In this document: positions 23,436-35,800 of the stretch, one piece after another
Position numbering within the stretch: position 1 is the first letter of the stretch
Layout of the letters: each line of letters begins with the position of its first letter
Position numbers and translations under genes: made by a program
Source: Craspedostauros australis
Lineage: Eukaryota
Assembly: GCA_030167865.1 (NCBI GenBank)
Contig: JALAGF010004138.1
Coordinates: 1-44,740, forward strand
Direction of reading: 5' to 3'
DNA length: 44,740 nucleotides
Notes under the pieces: generated by a model
What the model was told of the DNA's origin: nothing
The model's database searches: none
The model's input: the letters and a program-made list of their open reading frames with translations, nothing else

Positions 23436-25352
23436 CTACCTCTCTCCCTTGGCTGCGACGCCTAGCTTCTTCAAGGACTTATCCAAATGGTCGACCACTT
23501 CTGTGGCCGACGATCGCTCCTTGGGATCCTGTCGCCAGCACATGTTTATGGCCTTGACCAGCGCCTGTAGGAATGGATCCGTCGACTCTAGTAGCTCCTT
23601 CGATATGTGCGGCCGCCCTCCCTTGCGCACTTCTTCCTGCGCATCGTCCTCGCTGAGCTTCTCAAACGGAAATGTCTCCGTCAGGATGATGTACAGGATG
23701 TTGCCCAAACTGAACACGTCGATCTTCTCCGTCTCCACATGCGGCTTCACGTACTCTTCCGGCGCGCGGAACTTGCCCTTGTTGCTGGCCACAGCGAAGG
23801 GACACGGTTTCCCAGTCTCGCGATCCTTCAGGATGAAACGGGCGCGATTGAAGTCATTCAGCTTGAACATCCCCAGCTTGTTCAAGTACACGAATTGCGA
23901 CGCCGAGATATCCGTGTGCGAGATGGCGGCCATGGTCTTGGAATCGGTCGTGTGCACCGCGGCAACACCCGACGCCGCCTGATGCGAAACCACCAGCCGC
24001 TCCTTGCTGCTCCATCCGCCGCCGTCTTTGCCACCGAAGATGGCATCGTCCAAGGATCCGCCGTCTGCGAATTCGAACATGCCCGAGTTGGCGCAGAATG
24101 CGTAGATGTCCATGATGTATTCGGATCCCGTCAGGCGTTCCATGGCCACAGCATCGCGACGATGACGGTCGAAGTTACGTTTGGTGTAGTCGTGCATGTA
24201 TCGTAGGGTCTTGAGGACGGAACGACCGTCGTGGCCATCATTCTCTTCGTCGGCCAAGGGGGTGATCATCCTCCAGACGTCTCGGTAGTACCCGCCAGCC
24301 AAGTATTTGATGGGATGATGGAAGGAATGATGGCGTTTGTGATGCTCTTCCGCTAGACGGCGGTGTCCGTTCGTATCGTCTTCATCGTCTTCGCCCTCAT
24401 CATCCACAATTTCCTCCAATGGATGACTGGGAACCTCCATCGGATAATTGGGCAAATGCTTGTAGTGCGGATCGAACACCAACGTCATGTCCTGCTCCAG
24501 CACGAGGTTGCACGTCGGATTGTATCCGCCCTGCCACTCGTACTGCATGGCGCACTCGTCTGTCTCGAATGGATCCGGCAGCGCCTTTTTGTACTTGCGG
24601 GAGTTGGCCAGCGTTTCCTTTTGGAATTTGCGTTGTTCCTCAGTCTCGGGAAATCCCTTGAATTTGTGATCGTGCGGCAGCTGCACGCCCTGATGATGCG
24701 TGGGATCATCGTTGGGGTCCAGCAGCTCGATCGAATGGAAGTGCGAACGCGTCGCGCTTGTGAAGTACACGGCCATGGAACGCGGGCGGCTTGGGACGTA
24801 GGTCTCGAAATCCAAGGATTCTCTGGAGATCACAAGGTCCCTGTCGATGGGTTGTGCCAGGGTGCGAACCGAGGCGTACTCAGGAAAGTGCTCGAAGGGG
24901 TTGTCCTGGCCATCGTCCTCCTGCTCGACACCGGCCCAGCTCAAAGCGGAGCCAAGGTTGGCAGCCACCGATACCGACTGCGGTCCGTGATGTCCATGAG
25001 ATGCCGAAGACGGCACAGATGGCTCGTGGCGCCCTCGATGATATGCCGCGTACTTCTGGTCAGAACCGCCAAAGATCATGTAGTAAGCATCATCCAGGGC
25101 TCCGAAGAATGCCGCTGCGATGAAGAGCAGCACCATGCATGGCCAGAAGAGTACCATGGACGGAGACTTCCTCGCAGCAGAGGAGTACTTGTTGCGTTGC
25201 TCCGCGAACTTTCTTCCTCCCACATTTGCATTCGCATTGGCGTTATTGCCCATGCTGACTTCAACGGAGGCAGAAGGTGATCCGAATGGAGCTGGAGGAT
25301 CGATGCCTGCAGGCCGAGCGCGATGGCTTGCGGCTCTTCTTTGGACCACCAT
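23436..25352 (-). CDS. Type II membrane protein kinase, PKDCC/VLK-POMK-like, tandem paralog 2
   Basis: First ATG at 25352. TM helix MVLFWPCMVLLFIAAAFFGAL. Kinase motifs: LAGGYYRDVW, VLK, MERL, HTDISASQF, KLNDFN, FRAPEEY, KIDVFSLG. Colinear similarity with paralog 1. Confidence 0.88.
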   Translation of the reverse strand: MVVQRRAASHRARPAGIDPPAPFGSPSASVEVSMGNNANANANVGGRKFAEQRNKYSSAARKSPSMVLFWPCMVLLFIAAAFFGALDDAYYMIFGGSDQKYAAYHRGRHEPSVPSSASHGHHGPQSVSVAANLGSALSWAGVEQEDDGQDNPFEHFPEYASVRTLAQPIDRDLVISRESLDFETYVPSRPRSMAVYFTSATRSHFHSIELLDPNDDPTHHQGVQLPHDHKFKGFPETEEQRKFQKETLANSRKYKKALPDPFETDECAMQYEWQGGYNPTCNLVLEQDMTLVFDPHYKHLPNYPMEVPSHPLEEIVDDEGEDDEDDTNGHRRLAEEHHKRHHSFHHPIKYLAGGYYRDVWRMITPLADEENDGHDGRSVLKTLRYMHDYTKRNFDRHRRDAVAMERLTGSEYIMDIYAFCANSGMFEFADGGSLDDAIFGGKDGGGWSSKERLVVSHQAASGVAAVHTTDSKTMAAISHTDISASQFVYLNKLGMFKLNDFNRARFILKDRETGKPCPFAVASNKGKFRAPEEYVKPHVETEKIDVFSLGNILYIILTETFPFEKLSEDDAQEEVRKGGRPHISKELLESTDPFLQALVKAINMCWRQDPKERSSATEVVDHLDKSLKKLGVAAKGER

Positions 25353-25703
25353 CTCGACAATTCGATATCTTGCGACGCAATGCTTCTTTCCACTTGACAC
25401 TTCAGGATTTGCTTGTGCTATATGTCGTTGGATGCGATCCAACAGAGTAGAGTAGGTATTATACAAAGGATCACTCCACAATACTGTGTTGGATGATGAA
25501 TGGGAGACCTTGGTCGATCATCAACCTCAGGTGCGTGGAGACGTGAGCGAAGTGTAGGCAAAAACATGCAAAACCGATCGCTTTCCCCTTTCCCTCTCTG
25601 TGGTCATTTTGTCAAGTGTTTTGGTCCGTTGACCAATTGCTTCGCGACTCAACGTCCGTGTCTCAACTTATACATGACTCGATTGGAAGAATGTCATGCT
25701 GAG

Positions 25704-25711: not shown

Positions 25712-25782
25712 CAGGCGTTGCACAATATAGTCGGACACGACTGGGACACAGAAGCGACAGTCGCTTGCCACCGCTAAAAGGT

Positions 25783-25792
25783 GGCGCCAAAA
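25783..25792 (-). promoter_or_regulatory. E2F-consensus-like site (TTTTGGCGCC) upstream of the DNA-repair helicase
   Basis: ggcgccaaaa on + reads TTTTGGCGCC on -, about 330 bp upstream of the helicase ATG. Confidence 0.3.
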
Positions 25793-25907
25793 TCGGGAAC
25801 TCCACAGATTTTCGCCACAGTGATGTGCTGCGCTGCATTGTTGTGTGCGCCAACCACACCGCGCCGAGAGAAACAGATGCCTTCCTGTCCTGTCCTCCAC
25901 CCATGCT

Positions 25908-25947
25908 CACACCCACACCCACACTCACACTCACACTCACACTCACA
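25908..25947. repeat. (CACACY)n hexamer microsatellite
   Basis: cacacccacacccacactcacactcacactcacactcaca read directly. Confidence 0.85.
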
Positions 25948-26119
25948 GACATCATCGTGCATGGTAATCCATGCGAGCGCTGCACATGCGATCAGCACAA
26001 TCTTCCCGAGTAATGCTTGTACACTGCTCGAAAAGAGTTCATGCGAAAGGCAGTGTTGGACACAAACTCGCTGCGAGCAGAGAAGAGCAACAACCGAGAC
26101 ACTGTACAGAACACGGAGA

Positions 26120-29100
26120 ATGGGCGACCCCGAGGATGAAGACAGCCAGGCAAGCTGCGTTTGTCTTGGTATCCGCCCTCCTCCACCCAAGCGACAGCGT
26201 CATCGCAGTGGGGATGGTATCGATGGTATCGATGGTATCGATGGTGCTCTCGGACTGTCGTATCCTCATTCAGGGTCGAACGGCTCAGACCCCATCATCC
26301 CGAACACAATGCTGGGCATCAATGATATCAATGGCATCAATGGCATCAATGACGACAATGCCGACAACGACAGCTCCGATGACGACTTGGAGTGTATCAT
26401 TGTAGAAGACCCATCGTCGTTGTATCCATCATCCGGGCAGTCAATGCTCCCATCATCCAACCCAGCCACAGGATCAACAGCAGAAGACGCAGACGCAGAT
26501 GTAGGGATAGACGATCTGTACCCTCTGGCCTCGCAGGTGGAAGTCACGAAATCCACAATGACCAATCCCAACATCGATTACATACACAAACGTCCAGACT
26601 GCGGGGTCCACAGCTTTGACGATGATCCAAAGCTCCACTGTGCCAAATGCTACTGCGTCGTATGCGACAAGCCCGCAAGTCAATGCCAAACGTGGGAGGA
26701 GCATTGCAAAGAGAAACCAAAGACCCAGAAGACCGAACACTGGGACGAGGTGGAACTTCTGGACGCCATCAATATGTCCATGCAACAGATGAGTCAGGCG
26801 CGGCAATCACAGCACCGCCAACATCAGCTGCAGCAACAGCAACATCGACAACGGCAACAATGGCACGTGCAGGCGAACCAGAAGCAACCACCACGGCATT
26901 CGGCACCGCAGGAAGCGGGCATGGTTCGGATCAGAAGTCGTCCTTCCACAAAATCACGCGGTGGTTCCCATGACAGCGCTTTGCCTAATCCAGTCGATGA
27001 ATTCAGCAATCAGCGGTCGAACAATGAGGGGCCACCATTACCTCACAAGAGCAGGTCCAAGCGGCAACCAGCTCAGAAAAAGATCATGGAAATATTCGAC
27101 GAGAATCTCGCCCTCTTGGTCAAGGGCGACGACAACGACCCCTCCACAAAGAAAAACCAACCTGCGGAAGTCCTCCCGACGGACGGCGACATCGACTCGC
27201 TGAAGATTCACAAGTCGCTCGTCATGAACCGAATTCAAATCGGATGGCCGTATCCGAAGATGATGCAACCCCAGCGACAGATGGCGATCCACATCCTGAA
27301 AGGATTGAAGACGAAGAAGCACGTGGTGCTGGAGAGCCCGACGGGGACGGGCAAATCCGCTGCCATCTTGTGCACGGTACTGGCATGGCAGCGCCACTTC
27401 TTCCAGGTGGAGCGCAAGGAAATAGCGAAGAAACTTAGAGCCCAAAAGCAGGCACGGGCTTCGCGAGATGCAGAAGCGACGCAAATGGACATTACCGCGA
27501 ACGGAAAACCTGCTGGCGATACTGCTGCGTCGTTCCAGGCAGTGACTGACAGAGAACCAGAGCTGCCATCAATCCAGGAGCATGCAGATACGGCTGCTTC
27601 ACCCAACACGTCAAAGCCACGACCGCAGGGTTCACCGGCAGTTTCGTCACCAGGAACGCAAGAGACGGCACGCCGCCAACAATTCGGTGACAGTGACAAA
27701 GACGTGACGGAACGGTTGAATCCTGTCATCATCTACTGCTCCCGCACACATTCGCAAGTGGCACAGATGGTATCCAGCCTTCGGAAGACGCCGTACAGAC
27801 CGCGCATGACGGTCATGGGAAGTCGTGATCGTCTTTGCATCAATCGGTACGTTCCTTTCACACTATTGGCTCCTGTTCCTGTCGTCTCGCATTTTGTGCT
27901 GTGCCGTCCAGCTGTACTCGCCCAGAACATGTGTCCACACAGCTCGCTAACCTCTCTGCTACATGACTTGCATTGATTACAGAGATTTGAAGAATGGCAA
28001 CAAAAAGGGGCAAGAGTTAACGCAGGCCTGCGTTGGACGCAAAAATCGAACCGAGTCGGACCGGAAGGAGATCTGGAAAAACAAACAGCTGCTTTATGAC
28101 GACGACAACCCGAGGGCTGGGTCTATCATCAGAGCAGAGCACTCCGTGAATCGCGATATGTATGACACCGATGAAGTTGGCTATACTGGGTCAGGACAAC
28201 GTGCACCGCCGTCGTACGAAGATGATGCTGAGGATGCGGCAGACAGAAAGAGTGGCAGCAAGGACGGACCCACATGTAGCCATTTCCGACAGCTGACGAG
28301 CAAACGAACTGCCGAATTGGTGCGATCGCGTTTTGCGATGGAAGTGGAGAAGATTAGTTGCTGCTCCTTGGGCGGAGAGAAGTCGAAGGTGGGCGTGCAC
28401 GACATCGAGGATCTCGTCACATTTGGAAAGAACCCGTACCTGGAGAAGGACATTGCCTTCTACAGAGACGGCGGAAAGCTCGGCATCACCATGTCGTTCG
28501 ATGTGGACAAGAAGACTTGCGTCGTCGAGAAGGTCCAGCCACAGGGGGCAGTGCAGAAGAACTCGGTGTATGTGGAGCCAGGTGATGTCATCATCGGAGT
28601 CAACGGAACCAACACAACGGGATGGTCGTTGGACCAAACCAAGGCCAAGATATTGAATACGAAGAAAGACCCGCTAACGTTGACAATATTGCGCAAGCAA
28701 GCCGATACGACCGCTCAGCTTGGCAATGGCGAAGCTGTAAATTCGATCCAGAACCAGTCTGCGCCCAACAGCATCGATCTCTCTGAAGCGTACTCGGATC
28801 ACGCGCCGTGTCCATACTACGTATCCCGAGGACTCATACCCCACGCCGAACTTATCTTTGCCCCGTACAACTACCTCCTGGATCCAGTAATTCGCAAACG
28901 ATCTGCTGTCAGCTTGCCGGGAAACGTCGTCGTCCTGGACGAAGCGCACAACATCGAAGACTTGCTCTGCGAAAGCGGCAGCGGAGAATTCGGCGAAATC
29001 GAACTGTGCGGATTGGTCCGTTTCTTATCGTTCCACGCAAACAAGGCGAGCGCGGGCAGAGCTTTCGTTACCGGTATTCGCAATGCTGGACCTGGGCAGA

Positions 29101-32100
29101 ACGAACTAGATGGTCAGGATACTGCAAAGCAAGACGGAATGAAGCAGTCAGCGCATACCTTGTTGGTGTTCGTGGAGAAGGTCGTTTGGCACATGAGGGG
29201 TCTGCGAAAGAAATTTCAAGGAAGTGCTCGTAAGTTGGAACGTGTGATAAAGAAGGCATGGATGGATGTATGAACGAATGAACGAATCTGAATACATGAA
29301 TGTCTGCGTCGTTGTGCCAAATCATGGTGGAAACGCGCCACACTATTGCGCCGTAATATTCGGTTCACCGACCCATCATGCGTTGCTCTGCTGATACAAC
29401 TGTGTACTCCATTGCCTTGCCCAAGCCTGGCATTGAGCGTTGTCACCATCTTTTGCATCATGATGCCTTGTTCACATCTGACGGAACTGCGTCGCATCAT
29501 TCTTGTTGATCATGCTGCCTCGGACACTGGTTGGCTGAGAGCAGAACGTCAGAAAGCTCTGAATCTCCACCAGGAACGGAGGCTCCCAGACAATCACTCA
29601 GAGGAGGTCGCCTTCTGTGGCCCAACAGGCATCGGGGTGAATGGGAGAGCCATCGGGTGCATGCCCTTCATGACAGAGCTCGGAGTGACTCCGCAGATTG
29701 TCACAGGGTTACAGCGGGACCTCAGCATCATCGCATTGGAACTGGCGTCATACAGTGGCAAAGAAGATGCTGGAGTGAACAACACTGTCGAAATGCTCTC
29801 CAAGTTGATTTCCAGGTTCGATCTCGCCGTGAAGAATCCACAGTAAGTCAATGGTTGCTCGATGATGGCGCTTGATCGGTGATTGTGTATGGTACGAGAG
29901 GGGAGCTCATGACCTTGTCCTTATTGTTTGTTGCTCGCCCTTCTTGGATACTACCAACACAAATCACATCCATCAACTCACAACGTTTGGGCTTGCTCCA
30001 TCAACTTCCGCCATCAAACATCATCACACCGTTCATCTCTTTCACCAAAACAGACATTACTACATGCTATACGAGATGAAGGCAACGGTGAACATGGACT
30101 ACGCCTGCATGTCTGAAGCGGAATGGGTTGCGCACAACAGGAAGCCTCACCGCGGAAAGCGACAGACTAAGTACCAAGGGAAGTCTCTCCGACAAATCCC
30201 ATTCATCAGCCCACGCACGGAAGCCAATCCGACCAGAGTGGTTCCTATCTGCGAGCTCTGCAAACGAAAGAACCCAACCCAGGCGGCCGTTGCACATGGC
30301 CTATTCTGCGACGGATCGCGACCGCAGTGGGAATCGCGGTTGGTCTTCCGATTGCTGTCACCCGGGATTCTGATGCGACCCTTGGCAGCTCAATGCCGAT
30401 CAGTGATCCTAGCCAGCGGCTCTTTGGCGCCGATACCATCTCTTTGCGCAGAACTGGATTTAATACGTCATCACAGGCGTGGTGCTGCTCCAGGTGTTCA
30501 AACTGCCACTCCGCAATATGCTCAAAGAGCTGGTGCTCCTGGAGGAAGAGACGAGCGCACAATGTCATCACCCGCAAGACGAGCAGGTGCTGCGGTGCCG
30601 AATGGAGTCAAACACGAAAGCGGAGTGGCCAATGGCCTGCCAGCATCACCCCCACACACGAACGCGCAACGAGAAAATTGGCTACATCGTTTGCAACTGA
30701 CCCCTCCACCGTTGGAAGCCAACCATGTCATCGACAAACATAATCAGTTGCTGGCGGTTGGCGTTGGTCATTTCCCAGATGGTTCGCGGTTGGCGTTTAC
30801 GTATTCTAACTACAGACAGCCTGGATACTACGAACGTCTGGGCCAATCCATCGCAACCATCATTGAAAGTATCCCCAGAGGCGGTGTGCTCATATTTCTG
30901 CCATCGTACAGCGTTCTCAAACAATGCGTGAGGTGTTGGAATCCAAACGAACCTGGTTTCGAAAACAACAGATTCGATGGATACAGCAACAGGAATCGAT
31001 TTCGCAGAAGAAACGGCAACAGTCAATACAACCGTCGCGCCACGGGGTTGTCCAATGTTTGGGGACGCTTTCAGGACGCAAAAAGATGTGTGATCGTCGA
31101 ACCGACGGGGAGTCAGGACGATTTTGAAAAATCCCGGGATGAGTATTCGAGGTCCATCGAGCAGACCGGCGAGTGCATCCTGCTGGCTGTGTACCGCGGC
31201 AAGATGTCCGAAGGCATCTCGTTCAACGACGATTACGCACGATGCGTGATCTGCGTTGGTATCCCGTACCCCAACAGGAATGATCGGTCCATCTCAGCCA
31301 AGCAAGCGTACAACAACGAACAGAGGAATGTCTGCAAAAACCTCGCCCTCCTCTCTGGCAGTCAATGGTACGCGCAACAAGCATACCGGGCGGTCGCGCA
31401 GGCGCTCGGACGATGCATCCGTCATGGTGCAGATTACGGCGCCATCATCCTTCTCGACCACCGCTTCTGCGACGACGGCTCTCCCAACGGAGGCATCTGC
31501 AGCCAACACCAGGCGCTTCCGAAATGGATGCGCTCGTCCATCCGGACGCTATCGCCACGCCAAAACTTTGGTCAGGGCGCCAATCCAATCGTCGGTGGGT
31601 ACGCAGGACTACGCAAAGCAATCGCCGCATTCTTTGATCGCGCCCCCAGGCACTGCAAGAAAATCCGCGATCAATGGGAGTCGGATCAAAGTGGAAGCAC
31701 CCAACCGGCAAGCAGACCAACACCGAATGGTGGTGAACATGGAATCGTCGCAACTGCAACTAGCGCCGTTGCCGCCGCCGCAGCAGCAACTGCCATATCC
31801 ACAACCGTTGCGACGGAAACTGCAAGTCCAGGACCAGGCAGTTCCCAGCCAGCAGTCGACGGACGCAGGGCAAGCTCGCAAGCCGCGGCAATCGAGAAGA
31901 TGATGGCAGCAACTGCAAGGGTAATTGCAGCACGACCAGCGGGCAGTCCCAACAGCATCGCCGCTCTCGTGGACGCAAGGATCCGGCCACCTGCGATCAC
32001 CCAAGTAGGCGGCGACGAAACAAATGCACCGTCGACACCAGTCTCAATGCCAGCCTCGATGACGACACCAGAGACGAACCGCAAGAAGATTTTCAATCCG

Positions 32101-32118
32101 TACGCGAAAGGTCCTTGA
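26120..32118 (+). CDS. XPD-family Fe-S DEAH DNA helicase, FANCJ(BRIP1)/RTEL1-like, with extra Cys/His and PDZ-like domains, 4 exons
   Basis: Exons 26120-27846, 27983-29229, ~29545-29842 and 30054-32118. The third-exon acceptor is the least certain. Motifs: Q-motif WPYPKMMQPQ, ESPTGTGKS, YCSRTHSQ, GSRDRLCIN, DIEDLVTFGK, CPYY, APYNYLLDP, LDEAHNIED, LASGSLAP, LIFLPSY, RGKMSEGISFND, GIPYPN, RAVAQALGRCIRHGADYGAIILLDHRF. Confidence 0.92.
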
Positions 32119-32232: not shown

Positions 32233-32808
32233 ACTGAACAGGAACAGCGTGGAAAGTTGCTTTACCTGTGGAATTGCCGAAACACATCCGAAAACGTGAT
32301 CTCTAGACATGACAACGTAGAAAAGCACGCTACGATTGAACACGGGACTGCTACCAATCAGCAATCCTGTCTTTGTCACGACAATAAAAGGGCTAATAAT
32401 GTACCTAGCGCTCCTTGGATGGAAGGGGAAGAGCTCAAGTCATCATGATCTGCGCGAAGGCGAAAACATGACCGAATGCAAACATCCAAGCACAAAATGG
32501 ATGCAAGATGAAGTTGTTCCTCTCTTCAGGCGTCTGCCATGTCAGCGTGCCATGGAGCATGCCACGGATGCGCATGCGGCATGGGACATCGTGATGGTGC
32601 GAGATGTGCAAGAACTGGGTCATCACACATAGAATACTCGTACATGCCATACTCTGCCCGCAAGCTTCCCGCTGTGACTTGGCTTGACTTGCATTGATCA
32701 AGAAGTTGAGTTGTGCGTTCACACATCCGCGAAAGCCAAAGAAGACAGACATCGATCCAGCGCGCTTGTGCATACCCCCGATCTTGCGGTGAACTGGAGG
32801 AAGGAACG

Positions 32809-35800
32809 ATGAGTGAGATCACGGATGAGAACGACGTTGCTCGCAAGCAAGGGAAGGAGGATGGCGATGATGCTCACGTGGGTGCAGGCGACGAGAACGC
32901 TGCATCTGATGGGCAGAATGTGACCTCCCACGGCGAAAAGGCAACCACAGAACCTGCACCAGGAGACCACAAAACGGACGAACAGGAAGACAAAAGCGAG
33001 CGCAGCGAGAGCAACAACGACGACGCAGGTGAGATCTTCGACGCAATCAATCAGAAGTACACCAAGGAAACTCGTCACAGCGCCCCACAACAGACCATGG
33101 ATGCGCAGCAGCCAGGTGAAGAGATCCAACATCCAAGCGCCCATCAAAGGCGGCGCGTTTTGATGGAACGCATGGCAACAAAGCCGGCCGGAGTTGGCGC
33201 GCACTCCGTCGCCGGGTTGGACGACAAGGTGCAATCCAAACTGAAGCGGTCCTTCGGAAGCTCCACGTCAAGTCCCGCGGCTGCTGTCGATGCAGCAAGG
33301 CAGCAGCGGCATGACGAATTGGCGAAGCGCGTCGAGAGGGATGCCCGGGCGAGCACTCCCGGGGCAACGCAAGTGACTTCAGACGATGCAGCGGCGAAGT
33401 ACGCTCGAAAGGTCGAAGGTCAACTGCAAGGACGCTCTTCCGCCGCTCCATCACAATTGGTCGGCGCTGTTTCCGTCCGCGGACCGGCAAAGACTTCCGC
33501 AAAGCAGGACCCAAAGAAGGATTCAACCAGCAACCAAGTTTGGATCAACAGTCTGCTGGATGAAGACAATGGTCGCAAATCCGCCGTGGGAACGGTCACG
33601 AGGTCTTCCATGGAGTTTCAGAAAAAGGCCGATGGTGCTTCCGACGAGAAGGCGGGCATGCGACTGGAGCCTGCTGTTGTTGCCACTGCAAGCACCTCGA
33701 TGTCGGCGACCAAGACGTTGGGACTGGAAAAGGGATATGGGTCAGCATCCACGGCCAATGGAGGCGGATTTTCCCCACAAGGCATCAACAATGGTGCCCC
33801 AAAGCCATCTTTATCGAGTTCAAGGAGCACAGCCACAGACCAGCATAACGGGGGCAACGTGGAGGACGAAAGTGCCACGGTTGCGGACACGGCGGCCACT
33901 CCACACAGCAACGATGACGACATCATGACCAACATCGATATCCATACTACCGTCGGTGCACACGCGATCGCAGGAATCGATTCCCACAGCCACCAACGTG
34001 ACGACGACTACGATTTACAATCCGATCTCGATGCGGCAGACGACAACTACGGCAACAGCAATTACAATGGGGACGATCCAAGCCTCGCAACAACCCCGGA
34101 CGGAGGCACGGTCCTTGTGGCAGCACGCGCGGTTGAAGAAGACGAATTGGCGGGTCTGCAAGACTTTCGTCATCAGCTCCGATCGGAGCTCGATCAGGAG
34201 CGTAATCTCATGGCGGCTGAAATCCGCAGGGAGGTGCAACGCGACATCCTCACCAATGTTGTTGCCGGCGAAGTTGTTCACGAGGTTCAGGAAGTTCATG
34301 ATACCGATGATCCGATAGGGAATCGGAAACCGGCGAACGGTGACGCCGCAATGTACGCTCGCGACAATGACGTTGAGCAGGGCGATCGGGACATGGAGAT
34401 CAAGGTCAAAGACGCGATCTCGCAACGAACCACGAAGAACAGGCGAATCATCGCCGTGCTGAGCTGCCTCGTGATTGCCGTTGCCGGTGTCCTCGCGGGC
34501 ATTTTCCTGGGTCAGTCGTCTGGCAGCGACGGCAACCCGGATTCAGGACAATTGCTGTCGCCTGTGCAAGTGCCTACGGAGGTGCCGACAGAAATGCCAA
34601 CCAAGGCGCCGACGGAGAGTCCGTCGAACCAACCCACTTCTGCGCCAACTTCGCGACCCACATCCATGACGCCATTCGGCGACACGACGTTGCCCCCCGT
34701 GAGCGCTCCGGCGGCCTTTGATATGTTTGAAGAAGAAGCGCAACTGCTTGCATTCGGCGTGTCCGGAAATTTGGTGCTCGAAGAAGACACACCGCAAAGT
34801 GCAGCCCTGAACTGGATCATCAACGAGGACAGAGACTTCTCGTCCACCTTGCGGTCCTTCGACTTGAGGGATAGGTACATCGTGACCTTGCTCTACTTTT
34901 CTCTCGGGGGTGACGGATGGATCGACTCGATGGGATTCCTCACGCCGCGACCGATCTGTGAATGGAACGTTCCTGATCCGAACATCGAAGACAACACGTT
35001 CGGGTTCGTCTGTCCCATTGCTACTTCAGACGTCTGGCTCACCTTGACAAGCAACAATCTCACTGGGACCATCCCAGAGGAGATTAGATTCTTGAGCCTC
35101 GCTGTTATCGATCTACGGGACAACAAGATCACCGGCAAGATCCCACAGGCGGCCGGAAACTTGAACAATCTCGAGTGGATCTTACTGTCTGACAATGACC
35201 TTACGGGCATTATCCCTCCCAAGGTCCCGAAATTGCCAGATCTGATCGCCTTATTTTTGGAGGGAAATCGATTGAGCGGTAGTATCCCCACCTTCAACTA
35301 CGAGAATCGAAATTTACGTCGCGTCCAACTGGTAAGTCGTCAGCATGTTTGCTGAGTGTTCGATTGGGCCCAAGATTGAATGTGACAGGCGTGGAAGCGA
35401 GTGAAATGAATTCAGCATTCGTTCGAGTGCCACCGTTTGAAATGTAACGAAGTGAAGCCAAATCCTGACATCACTCCATTCGCTGCAAACCCACTTGTAC
35501 ACCTATCCCGCGTCTGCTTGGCACATTGTGATCACCAACCCATCGCCAACCACATACTACGCTGTGCTTCAGTCTCAACGCAATTGCGGCAAGCTTTCCG
35601 GCAACATCGAGACCATTCTAGACTCCATTCGCGGCAGCATCTTCGAAGTCCTCAGTGGTAAGCGCAAACGACAGTCGATTCTGGCGATTCGCTTGACCGT
35701 CTCCCTGCCAATTGAAGCAGCGCAGGGGCGTTGCTCAGGCGTACCAATAAGTACCACCCTCGCAACCTTTGATCGATACTGACAGCTTTTGCACCGTTCC

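Follow-up and report, generated by a model that had tools for sequence, protein, structure and literature searches.

The gene described here lies on contig JALAGF010004138.1 of the diatom Craspedostauros australis (GenBank assembly GCA_030167865.1), of which we analysed positions 1 to 44,740 of the forward strand, hereafter the window. It is a four-exon gene on the plus strand and encodes a FANCJ/RTEL1-like 5'-3' iron-sulphur (Fe-S) DNA helicase of the XPD superfamily. Sequence profiles and structure predictions identify, within the Fe-S domain of this helicase, a complete and canonical PDZ domain with its linkers, inserted in a loop that normally counts nine residues, between the DIEDLV..G helix and the fourth cysteine of the cluster (Cys4). 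As read from the sequences compared, the insertion was gained before diatoms and their sister group, the bolidophytes (Triparma), split and has been kept at a single site in more than 100 sequence clusters. The most likely function of the PDZ domain, which we put at a probability of about one half, would be to serve as a docking module on that side of the Fe-S domain which engages DNA.

The PDZ domain and its host

The insert occupies positions 28431..28808 of the plus strand, i.e. 378 nt or 126 open codons inside one exon. It directly follows DIEDLVTFGK (28401..28430, +, exon 2), which forms the last helix conserved in the Fe-S domain ahead of the insertion, and precedes CPYY (28809..28820, +), which provides Cys4 (its codon at 28809, within PCPYY at 28806-28820) and the aromatic residues that contact single-stranded DNA (ssDNA). 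A preliminary description of this DNA, made from its letters alone, had placed these elements at exactly the same coordinates, with the peptide that it quoted held in 126 stop-free codons, and had maintained that no intron was needed to explain the distance between them; indeed, the whole interval falls within an exon (27983..29229) that is bounded by GT..AG introns.

The PDZ fold proper corresponds to residues 153-238 of the exon-2 translation, P0003 (28440..28697, +), as delimited by Pfam, DSSP, Foldseek and VIA, and is followed by a variable linker (28698..28805, +) which ends in a conserved Y-S-x-x-x-(A/P)-C. The Pfam family PF00595 matched insert residues 12-87 (P0003 residues 161-236) with an E-value of 9.4e-14 and a score of 52.0 bits, where the cut-off is 23.2, covering profile positions 6-81 of 81. 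Of the hallmarks that had first suggested a PDZ domain, the following were located: the carboxylate-binding loop R-D-G-G-K-L-G-I, which starts at R161 and includes KLGIT (28476-28490, +), the motif GD-x-I-x-x-VNG, here GDVIIGVNG (28581-28607, +), and the final strand, LTLTILR (28674-28694, +). A sequence search of the PDB led to the PDZ domains of p55/MPP1, syntenin-1, GIPC2 and Erbin. In an AlphaFold2 model of exon 2, based on a 29-sequence alignment, the predicted local distance difference test (pLDDT) averaged 69 overall and reached 79-93 in the PDZ part, and the order of secondary structure elements assigned by DSSP was the canonical bA bB bC aA bD bE aB bF, with six strands and two helices, helix aB beginning at Leu216 of P0003. 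Foldseek returned 162 matches in the PDB at E<=1e-3, and all of those among the matches listed are PDZ domains, with a best target template modelling (TM) score of 0.85 and root-mean-square deviations (rmsd) of 1.5-2.3 (for PDZ7 of MPDZ, for example, a target TM score of 0.80 and an rmsd of 1.7). A search of the ESM Atlas gave DEAD_2 clusters only, at 0.78-0.80, which is too low to be useful as a lead.

For the whole enzyme, a full-length model was made of an orthologue, P0009 (1133 aa, 82-sequence alignment), which stands in for the window's spliced protein. Its mean pLDDT was 86.3 and its predicted TM score (pTM) 0.86, and the PDZ domain and both flanking linkers had values of 90-97. Residues 236-325 of this model superposed on solved PDZ domains with Z 13.5-13.9 and rmsd 1.2-2.4 over 83-88 residues (Par-6 PDZ against residues 236-323: Z 13.9, 87 aligned, rmsd 1.7). 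The model also contains the predicted four-domain fold of HD1, Fe-S, Arch and HD2, and VIA-align placed it on XPD chains with Z 24-25 over 630-665 residues (best Z 25.2, 665 aligned, rmsd 4.0). The assignment of the insert to the PDZ family is thus borne out by Pfam, by the AlphaFold fold and by the Foldseek and VIA matches.

In comparison with well-studied PDZ domains (p55/MPP1, syntenin-1, Par-6, PSD-95 PDZ3 and MPDZ), the one described here is alike in its Pfam score, in the order of strands and helices, in the loop R-x3-x-hydrophobic-G-hydrophobic, in GD.I..VNG and in the final strand, but it is a guest within another domain of a nuclear DNA helicase rather than a module of a scaffold protein. 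Class I PDZ domains have a His at the first position of helix aB; the window's PDZ has a Leu there instead, and a Lys as the first residue of its 'GLGF' loop. Another PDZ insertion of the domain-in-domain type is that of the syntrophins, whose PH domain is split by a PDZ. As in the syntrophins, the PDZ domain is tolerated in a loop of the host domain with its N- and C-termini adjacent, although the host here is the metal-cluster domain of a helicase.

The insert also behaves as coding sequence. The G+C content at third codon positions (GC3) is 0.71 in the insert, compared with 0.59-0.60 in the rest of the exon and the flanking coding sequence and 0.40-0.50 in the introns, and the mean pairwise identity between relatives is 33% for the PDZ, 24% for the adjacent disordered loop and 54-65% for the Fe-S/HD1 core. 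The PDZ identity and the GC3 therefore suggest coding sequence under purifying selection, weaker than that on the core. An open frame of 126 codons whose GC3 is higher than elsewhere in the exon, the conservation at the protein level across more than 100 clusters and the occurrence of several PDZ-bearing relatives on transcript-like contigs that scarcely exceed the coding sequence in length (in P0006, 3895 nt for 1258 aa, the source type not being stated) make it extremely improbable that the segment is an unrecognised intron or an alternative exon which stays outside the mature protein. What can be cited for such an intron is one in-frame GTATGT...CAG pair at 28568-28771 and the relatives P0178, P0189 and P0192, which are without a PDZ and could be isoforms or the outcome of gene-model choices. 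The hidden intron 28568-28771, which came from a scan of 28380-28830, was rejected: it would cut the PDZ fold mid-way, and nothing supports it.

The four candidate cluster cysteines listed in the preliminary description, which belong to the 4Fe-4S domain between motifs Ia and II, are all present and align with those of FANCJ/RTEL1-type proteins. Cys1 lies in RLCIN (27830..27844, +, exon 1), in line with the first cysteine of those proteins; Cys2, in QACVG (28023..28037, +), was placed by the alignment of the Fe-S region; and Cys3, in PTCSHF (28269..28286, +), is followed by a conserved H-(Y/F)-R patch. In the alignment of exon 2 (A1, 29 sequences), C98 and H100 do not vary and Y101 and R102 are conserved to at least 90%, while D140, E142, D143 and L144 of the DIEDL helix are invariant, as are C276, P277, Y278 and Y279 of CPYY. 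The four cysteines are in register between plant FANCJ, chicken and Tribolium RTEL1, Phytophthora and the diatom clade, and in a second alignment (A2, 82 sequences headed by P0009) each of them is either invariant or conserved to at least 90%. With Walker A, DEAH, Helicase_C_2 and the four candidate cysteines in place, the helicase core is intact at the sequence level, and each feature tested agreed with membership of the XPD/Rad3-like Fe-S helicases, cluster binding being predicted.

The Fe-S domain of the diatom clade has three additions in the alignment: an acidic loop, a longer segment from Cys3 to DIEDL, which contains a conserved CC.xGG, and the PDZ domain. The acidic loop, clade-specific and of about 60 residues, lies between Cys2 and Cys3 (28080..28268, +) and is predicted to be mostly disordered (pLDDT <50 at P0003 residues 47-81 and 84-92); the aligned Prunus FANCJ, Gallus RTEL1, Tribolium RTEL1 and Phytophthora sequences do not have it. 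An extra conserved pair of cysteines, (I/V)xCCSxGGE, was observed at 28353-28376, before the DIEDL helix, and is likewise specific to the clade.

To place the insertion among relatives, the distance between the motif D-x-E-[DE]-[LIM] and the cysteine of C-[PA]-aromatic-aromatic was surveyed in 359 proteins from three database searches, 287 of which had both motifs. The gap was exactly 9 residues in 169 of the 287, 11-12 residues in 2 (the bin of 10-12), 13-89 in 5, 90-150 in 103 and above 150 in 8, so that 111 proteins have a gap of at least 90 residues; the regular expression may catch an upstream motif, as it did in P0032, and the classes 90-150 and >150 are therefore approximate. The claim that only a few residues normally separate the two motifs holds for FANCJ/RTEL1-type proteins, to which the survey refers, rather than to XPD: outside the clade nearly all of them have exactly 9. 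In alignment A1, 27 of the 29 rows have an insert of 97-144 residues at one shared place.

Among known helicases, human FANCJ/BRIP1 (9ej9) was the best sequence match in the PDB (E 2.2e-14 over CPYY to DEAH). It shares with the window's protein its place in the XPD family of superfamily 2, a four-cysteine Fe-S domain in HD1, the DIE[ED]L helix, CPYY, DEAH and Helicase_C_2, but FANCJ-type proteins have exactly 9 residues where the window's protein has 131 including the PDZ; further additions of the clade are a Cys-rich motif at the N-terminus and, between Cys2 and Cys3, the acidic loop. For the C-terminal half of the window's protein, the matches outside the clade are mostly annotated as FANCJ; against exon 2, RTEL1 scores about equal to FANCJ, and the Seminavis orthologue is annotated as RTEL1. 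The BRCA1-binding phospho-motif and the MLH1-binding di-lysine insertion of FANCJ are vertebrate-specific features. RTEL1 has the Fe-S domain layout and the 9-residue spacing of the FANCJ type, and in metazoans its C-terminus is a metal-binding RING-like motif; in this it resembles many orthologues of the window's gene, which have a C-terminal RING, but not the window's own protein, which has none. ARCH_RTEL1 (PF23109) and the C-terminal domain PF23116, both carried by the listed RTEL1 proteins, had no match at E<=1 on the window's exon products. XPD/Rad3, the TFIIH subunit, and archaeal XPD share the four-domain fold in the P0009 model (Z 24-25), but their sequence similarity is much lower (PDB E-value about 5e-7 vs 2e-14 for FANCJ), and the aligned XPD chains are without a PDZ. 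We thus regard 'FANCJ/RTEL1-like' as the honest label, with FANCJ as the nearest characterised relative by sequence.

Distribution and history of the insertion

The search for the same insertion point in other proteins, proposed in the preliminary description, found it in diatoms and bolidophytes. The top 28 long matches to exon 2 were 30-41% identical, and PF00595 was in the precomputed domains of 22 of these 28 and of none of the 92 other rows listed. P0007, P0023, P0025 and P0027 have an equally long insert with weak PDZ scores, and P0028 and P0029 just 20-24 unrelated residues at the insertion site. Pennate and centric diatoms and Triparma have the PDZ at the identical site; the named carriers are Cylindrotheca fusiformis, C. 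closterium, Pseudo-nitzschia (Psemu1), Nitzschia inconspicua, Seminavis robusta and Amphora coffeaeformis, together with four Thalassiosira, Cyclotella cryptica and the bolidophytes Triparma verrucosa and T. laevis. No PDZ was found at this site in the oomycete, plant, animal, fungal and dinoflagellate relatives gathered. Two tandem PDZ stretches are present in P0271 of Seminavis robusta and in 7/7 other long-insert proteins scanned, with inserts of 211-344 residues (the other double-PDZ proteins are P0124, P0131, P0146, P0151, P0153, P0164 and P0177).

This distribution was set against a tree of 46 rows and 795 columns, computed as a quick run under LG+G4, which is more prone to long-branch artefacts than a mixture model, without an XPD or DDX11 outgroup and with support from the Shimodaira-Hasegawa-like approximate likelihood ratio test (SH-aLRT) only; all support values below are of this kind. 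The window's exon 4 groups with Cylindrotheca, Pseudo-nitzschia and Nitzschia (97), and the diatoms, Triparma, P0027 and P0191 are united (100). The diatom-bolidophyte clade (100) stands beside a dinoflagellate group and Phaeothamnion, apart from the FANCJ of oomycetes, plants and opisthokonts and from RTEL1, and animal RTEL1 forms a clade of its own (100) away from it. The PDZ-less P0028 and P0029 are nested within the diatoms, as sister to a PDZ-bearing sequence (97), and therefore indicate secondary loss. P0191 probably branched off early within the clade; with the canonical 9-residue spacer, no PDZ, a C-terminal RING and a UPF0029 (PF01205) domain, it may represent the state before the insertion. 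The fewest changes would be a single gain before the diatom-bolidophyte split and a single loss, in at least one nested lineage. In addition to this loss, the PDZ was duplicated in tandem in one lineage. The insertion offers a clean synapomorphy for the diatom-bolidophyte lineage.

The preliminary description had presented the architecture as one not known from model organisms. That part stands insofar as the open-access and bioRxiv literature searched yielded no account of a PDZ domain inside a helicase of the XPD family; the architecture is not, however, unique to the window, since orthologues from diatoms and bolidophytes carry it as a rule. It is already visible in public records through automatic Pfam lists, which lowers the novelty of the single locus.

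A long retention at one site raises the question of how much of the PDZ domain has been preserved. Across the 27 PDZ-bearing rows, the residues kept are Y160 in 25, R161 in 26, G167 in 27, D201 in 26, N207, G208 and P230 in 24 each and L231 in 23, and the positions that flank G167 are hydrophobic throughout the 27 clade rows. This conservation of fold-defining and groove residues weighs against the PDZ being a tolerated passenger, i.e. an ancient insertion with little present function and in slow decay, and so do its confident prediction in both models, its duplication in another lineage and its retention at one site, in 111 motif-bearing proteins, since before the diatom-bolidophyte split. 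We consider a passenger improbable, even though the fast evolution of the domain (33% identity) would fit with it, as would the scores of PF00595 in P0007, P0025, P0027, P0276 and P0290 (18.6-22 bits, below the cut-off), the lack of any PF00595 match at E<=0.1 in P0278 and the loss of the PDZ in P0028 and P0029, nested as they are inside the diatoms.

At the other end of the protein, a RING finger (PF13920) stands at the C-terminus of many orthologues from centric diatoms and Triparma (P0008, P0012, P0014, P0015, P0017, P0026 and P0269-P0291), and the ancestral protein was probably a fusion of helicase and E3 ligase. The RING-bearing orthologues carry a conserved hydrophobic tail, ...V-(F/Y/H)-(W/I/L), and the RING is absent at 31474-32118 of the window.

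Position on the enzyme and possible functions

XPD-family Fe-S helicases (XPD, FANCJ, RTEL1 and DDX11) are central to genome stability. The position of the insertion can be related to human FANCJ, for which a cryo-electron microscopy study (PMC13490418) gives Cys283, Cys298, Cys310 and Cys350 as the residues that hold the cluster, describes lower iron content and unwinding for A349P, which adjoins Cys350 and is a cause of Fanconi anaemia, assigns K348 to a patch that recognises G-quadruplexes (G4) and has Tyr352, Tyr353 and Arg356 in contact with ssDNA. In the PDB sequence alignment with 9ej9, the window's PCPYYVSR aligns to residues 349 onward of the human chain. By analogy, this would put the insertion into the K348/A349 loop, and the PDZ would sit at the face of the Fe-S domain where substrate DNA or a junction meets the helicase. 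Going by A349P and K348 (PMC13490418), the loop just ahead of Cys4 is a hot spot, and in the diatom-bolidophyte clade it accepts a whole folded domain, sometimes two, with all cysteines kept. The clade thus provides a natural experiment on the tolerance of cluster ligation and of substrate recognition.

Such a position, beside residues described as DNA-contacting in that study (PMC13490418), would also suit a PDZ that acts on the substrate and wedges, clamps or gates DNA (a G4, a fork or a junction), or one that simply buttresses the enlarged Fe-S domain. The P0009 model, in which confident PDZ linkers (pLDDT 90-97) and a pTM of 0.86 suggest a fixed pose and not a floppy tether, is consistent with this, and further insertions found in this clade, namely the CC.xGG segment and the acidic loop, indicate that the Fe-S domain has been remodelled as a whole. 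We nevertheless regard a role on the substrate as rather unlikely. The loop signature, with its Gly kept in 27/27 rows, the preceding Tyr in 25/27 and the Arg in 26/27, is hard to explain with an unused groove, and the exon-2 model of the window itself gives low confidence (pLDDT 44-55, residues 241-260) to the linker behind the PDZ. Furthermore, PDZ domains are not, to our knowledge, DNA binders.

The docking module is the reading that we prefer. The two ends of a PDZ domain lie side by side, and the insertion is therefore compatible with cluster ligation: the domain could hang from the loop without disturbing it. The R-x3-x-hydrophobic-Gly-hydrophobic loop kept in the clade, along with the usually hydrophobic first residue of helix aB, would form a groove for a hydrophobic ligand, either a hydrophobic (class-II-like) C-terminal tail of a partner protein or an internal strand. 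Since the first position of helix aB is mostly hydrophobic, a ligand tail would probably be hydrophobic too. Through such binding, a factor of repair or replication would be brought to the point of unwinding, or else the helicase to that factor.

Several points weigh against this proposal. Peptide binding by the PDZ groove is putative and is suggested by its sequence, and the first position of helix aB is variable (L in 9, I in 5, P in 5 and V in 2 of the 27 rows). Evolution is much faster in the PDZ than in the core of the helicase (33% vs 54-65% pairwise identity), and the lineage of P0028 and P0029 does without it, from which it follows that the PDZ is not indispensable to the enzyme. The location relative to DNA is carried over from human FANCJ, and the tree places the clade outside animal FANCJ. 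Finally, we infer that 28431..28808 is kept in the mRNA from the open frame, the codon bias and the conservation at the protein level.

It is also conceivable, although quite unlikely, that the PDZ works as a ligand-operated gate, in which the empty groove would cover the G4/ssDNA-junction patch until the tail of a partner from the replisome, from repair or from a ubiquitin ligase shifts the domain. If this were true, structured DNA would be engaged just where the partner is present, and the enzyme would be a peptide-controlled Fe-S helicase; we know of no XPD-family enzyme for which such regulation has been described.

The RING-bearing orthologues bring in a further idea, namely that the PDZ works in cis or between copies and binds a tail or strand of the helicase itself, with auto-inhibition or dimerisation as the outcome. 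The candidate ligand would be the conserved ...V-(F/Y/H)-(W/I/L) C-terminus behind the RING of centric-diatom orthologues: in a motif scan, 24 of 45 clade proteins had a C-terminal RING, most of these end in x-V-[FYH]-[WILVMT], and a hydrophobic first aB position would suit such a tail. This is doubtful, however, as the proteins of the window, Cylindrotheca, Pseudo-nitzschia and Nitzschia have no RING and have unrelated C-termini and still keep the PDZ, and the tails of Triparma differ. Because the window's protein is without a RING, the idea fits only the RING-bearing orthologues, and a conserved tail behind a RING of this type is expected for the function of the RING itself. A complex prediction between the PDZ of P0014 (712-818) and its own RING/C-terminal tail (1798-1861) scored 0.00 in two runs without controls and was used neither way.

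Diatoms and bolidophytes are major primary producers whose DNA-repair machinery has been little studied, and the architecture described here points to a lineage-specific wiring of a repair helicase to a protein partner in both groups. On a practical level, the PDZ constitutes a defined construct for ligand screening, and P0028, P0029 and P0191 are natural PDZ-less controls, which should be of interest to those who work on Fe-S helicases as well as on genome maintenance in diatoms.

Gene model and neighbouring features

The borders of exons and introns were read from the sequence and from tblastn with the orthologues P0005 and P0006, whose matches follow the exons in order; the donors are GTACGT or GTAAGT and the acceptors CAG. 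Exon 1 (26120..27846, +) lies in an open frame of 25778-27976, is covered by P0005/P0006 in a single frame over 26543-27853, and stops after the second base of an Arg codon, where a GTACGT donor follows. Its start codon was chosen from candidate ATGs and is presumably that at 26120 (MGDPEDED...). The exon includes the Walker A motif (helicase motif I), ESPTGTGKS, at 27332..27358 (+). Intron 1 (27847..27982, +; GTACGT...TTACAG, 136 nt) restores the frame, and the orthologue matches continue across it. Exon 2 (27983..29229, +) is translated as P0003, 415 aa without a stop, with Pfam matches to DEAD_2 and PDZ; it completes the Fe-S domain, PDZ included, and goes on to motif II, i.e. DEAH (28938..28949, +), which is conserved in alignment A1, and to the start of the Arch region. 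The DEAD_2 match (cut-off 21 bits) scores 36.8 in exon 1 and 84.3 in exon 2 and is interrupted by the insert: profile positions 1-42 end exon 1 at RLCIN, and positions 86-167 follow the PDZ.

Intron 2 (29230..29544, +) reads GTAAGT...GAGCAG, and the orthologue match picks up again at 29553-29568. Its acceptor (29538-29545) is a tandem AG-CAG, of which 29541 and 29544 are both in phase, with a difference of 1-2 residues. Exon 3 (29545..29842, +), defined by tblastn, belongs to the Arch region and has a GTAAGT donor at 29843; intron 3 (29843..30053, +) was defined by reading the sequence and by tblastn. Exon 4 (30054..32118, +) comprises Arch, HD2 and a low-complexity C-terminal tail up to the stop, and matches P0005 in tblastn with an E-value of 5e-151. 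Helicase_C_2 (about 30853-31473, +) is the sole confident family in it (Pfam E 3.2e-42, 144.9 bits, cut-off 25.3), and neither Pfam on the exon products nor a reading of the C-terminus revealed a RING in the window's protein.

Upstream of the helicase core, exon 1 encodes the Cys/His-rich motif NPNIDY...CAKCYCVVC...WEEHC (26564..26707, +), which is conserved in the clade with the consensus PH.R..CG...C..C.C..C...A..C..W..HC (alignments A1 and A3) and is probably a small zinc-binding module. It had no match in the local Pfam, and a PDB sequence search gave nothing below an E-value of about 1; PF27679 appears in the precomputed domain lists of relatives that carry the motif.

Of the frames next to the gene, both without an evident link to the helicase, that at 23439-25517 (-) encodes a protein kinase domain (Pkinase, E 7.6e-18) and that at 32710-35352 (+) PT repeats and leucine-rich repeats. 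Exon 1 has in-frame 9-bp tandem repeats (26213-26245 and 26317-26353) that encode GIDGIDGID and INGINGIN, and a (CTCACA)7 microsatellite lies at 25898-25947, upstream of the likely start codon.

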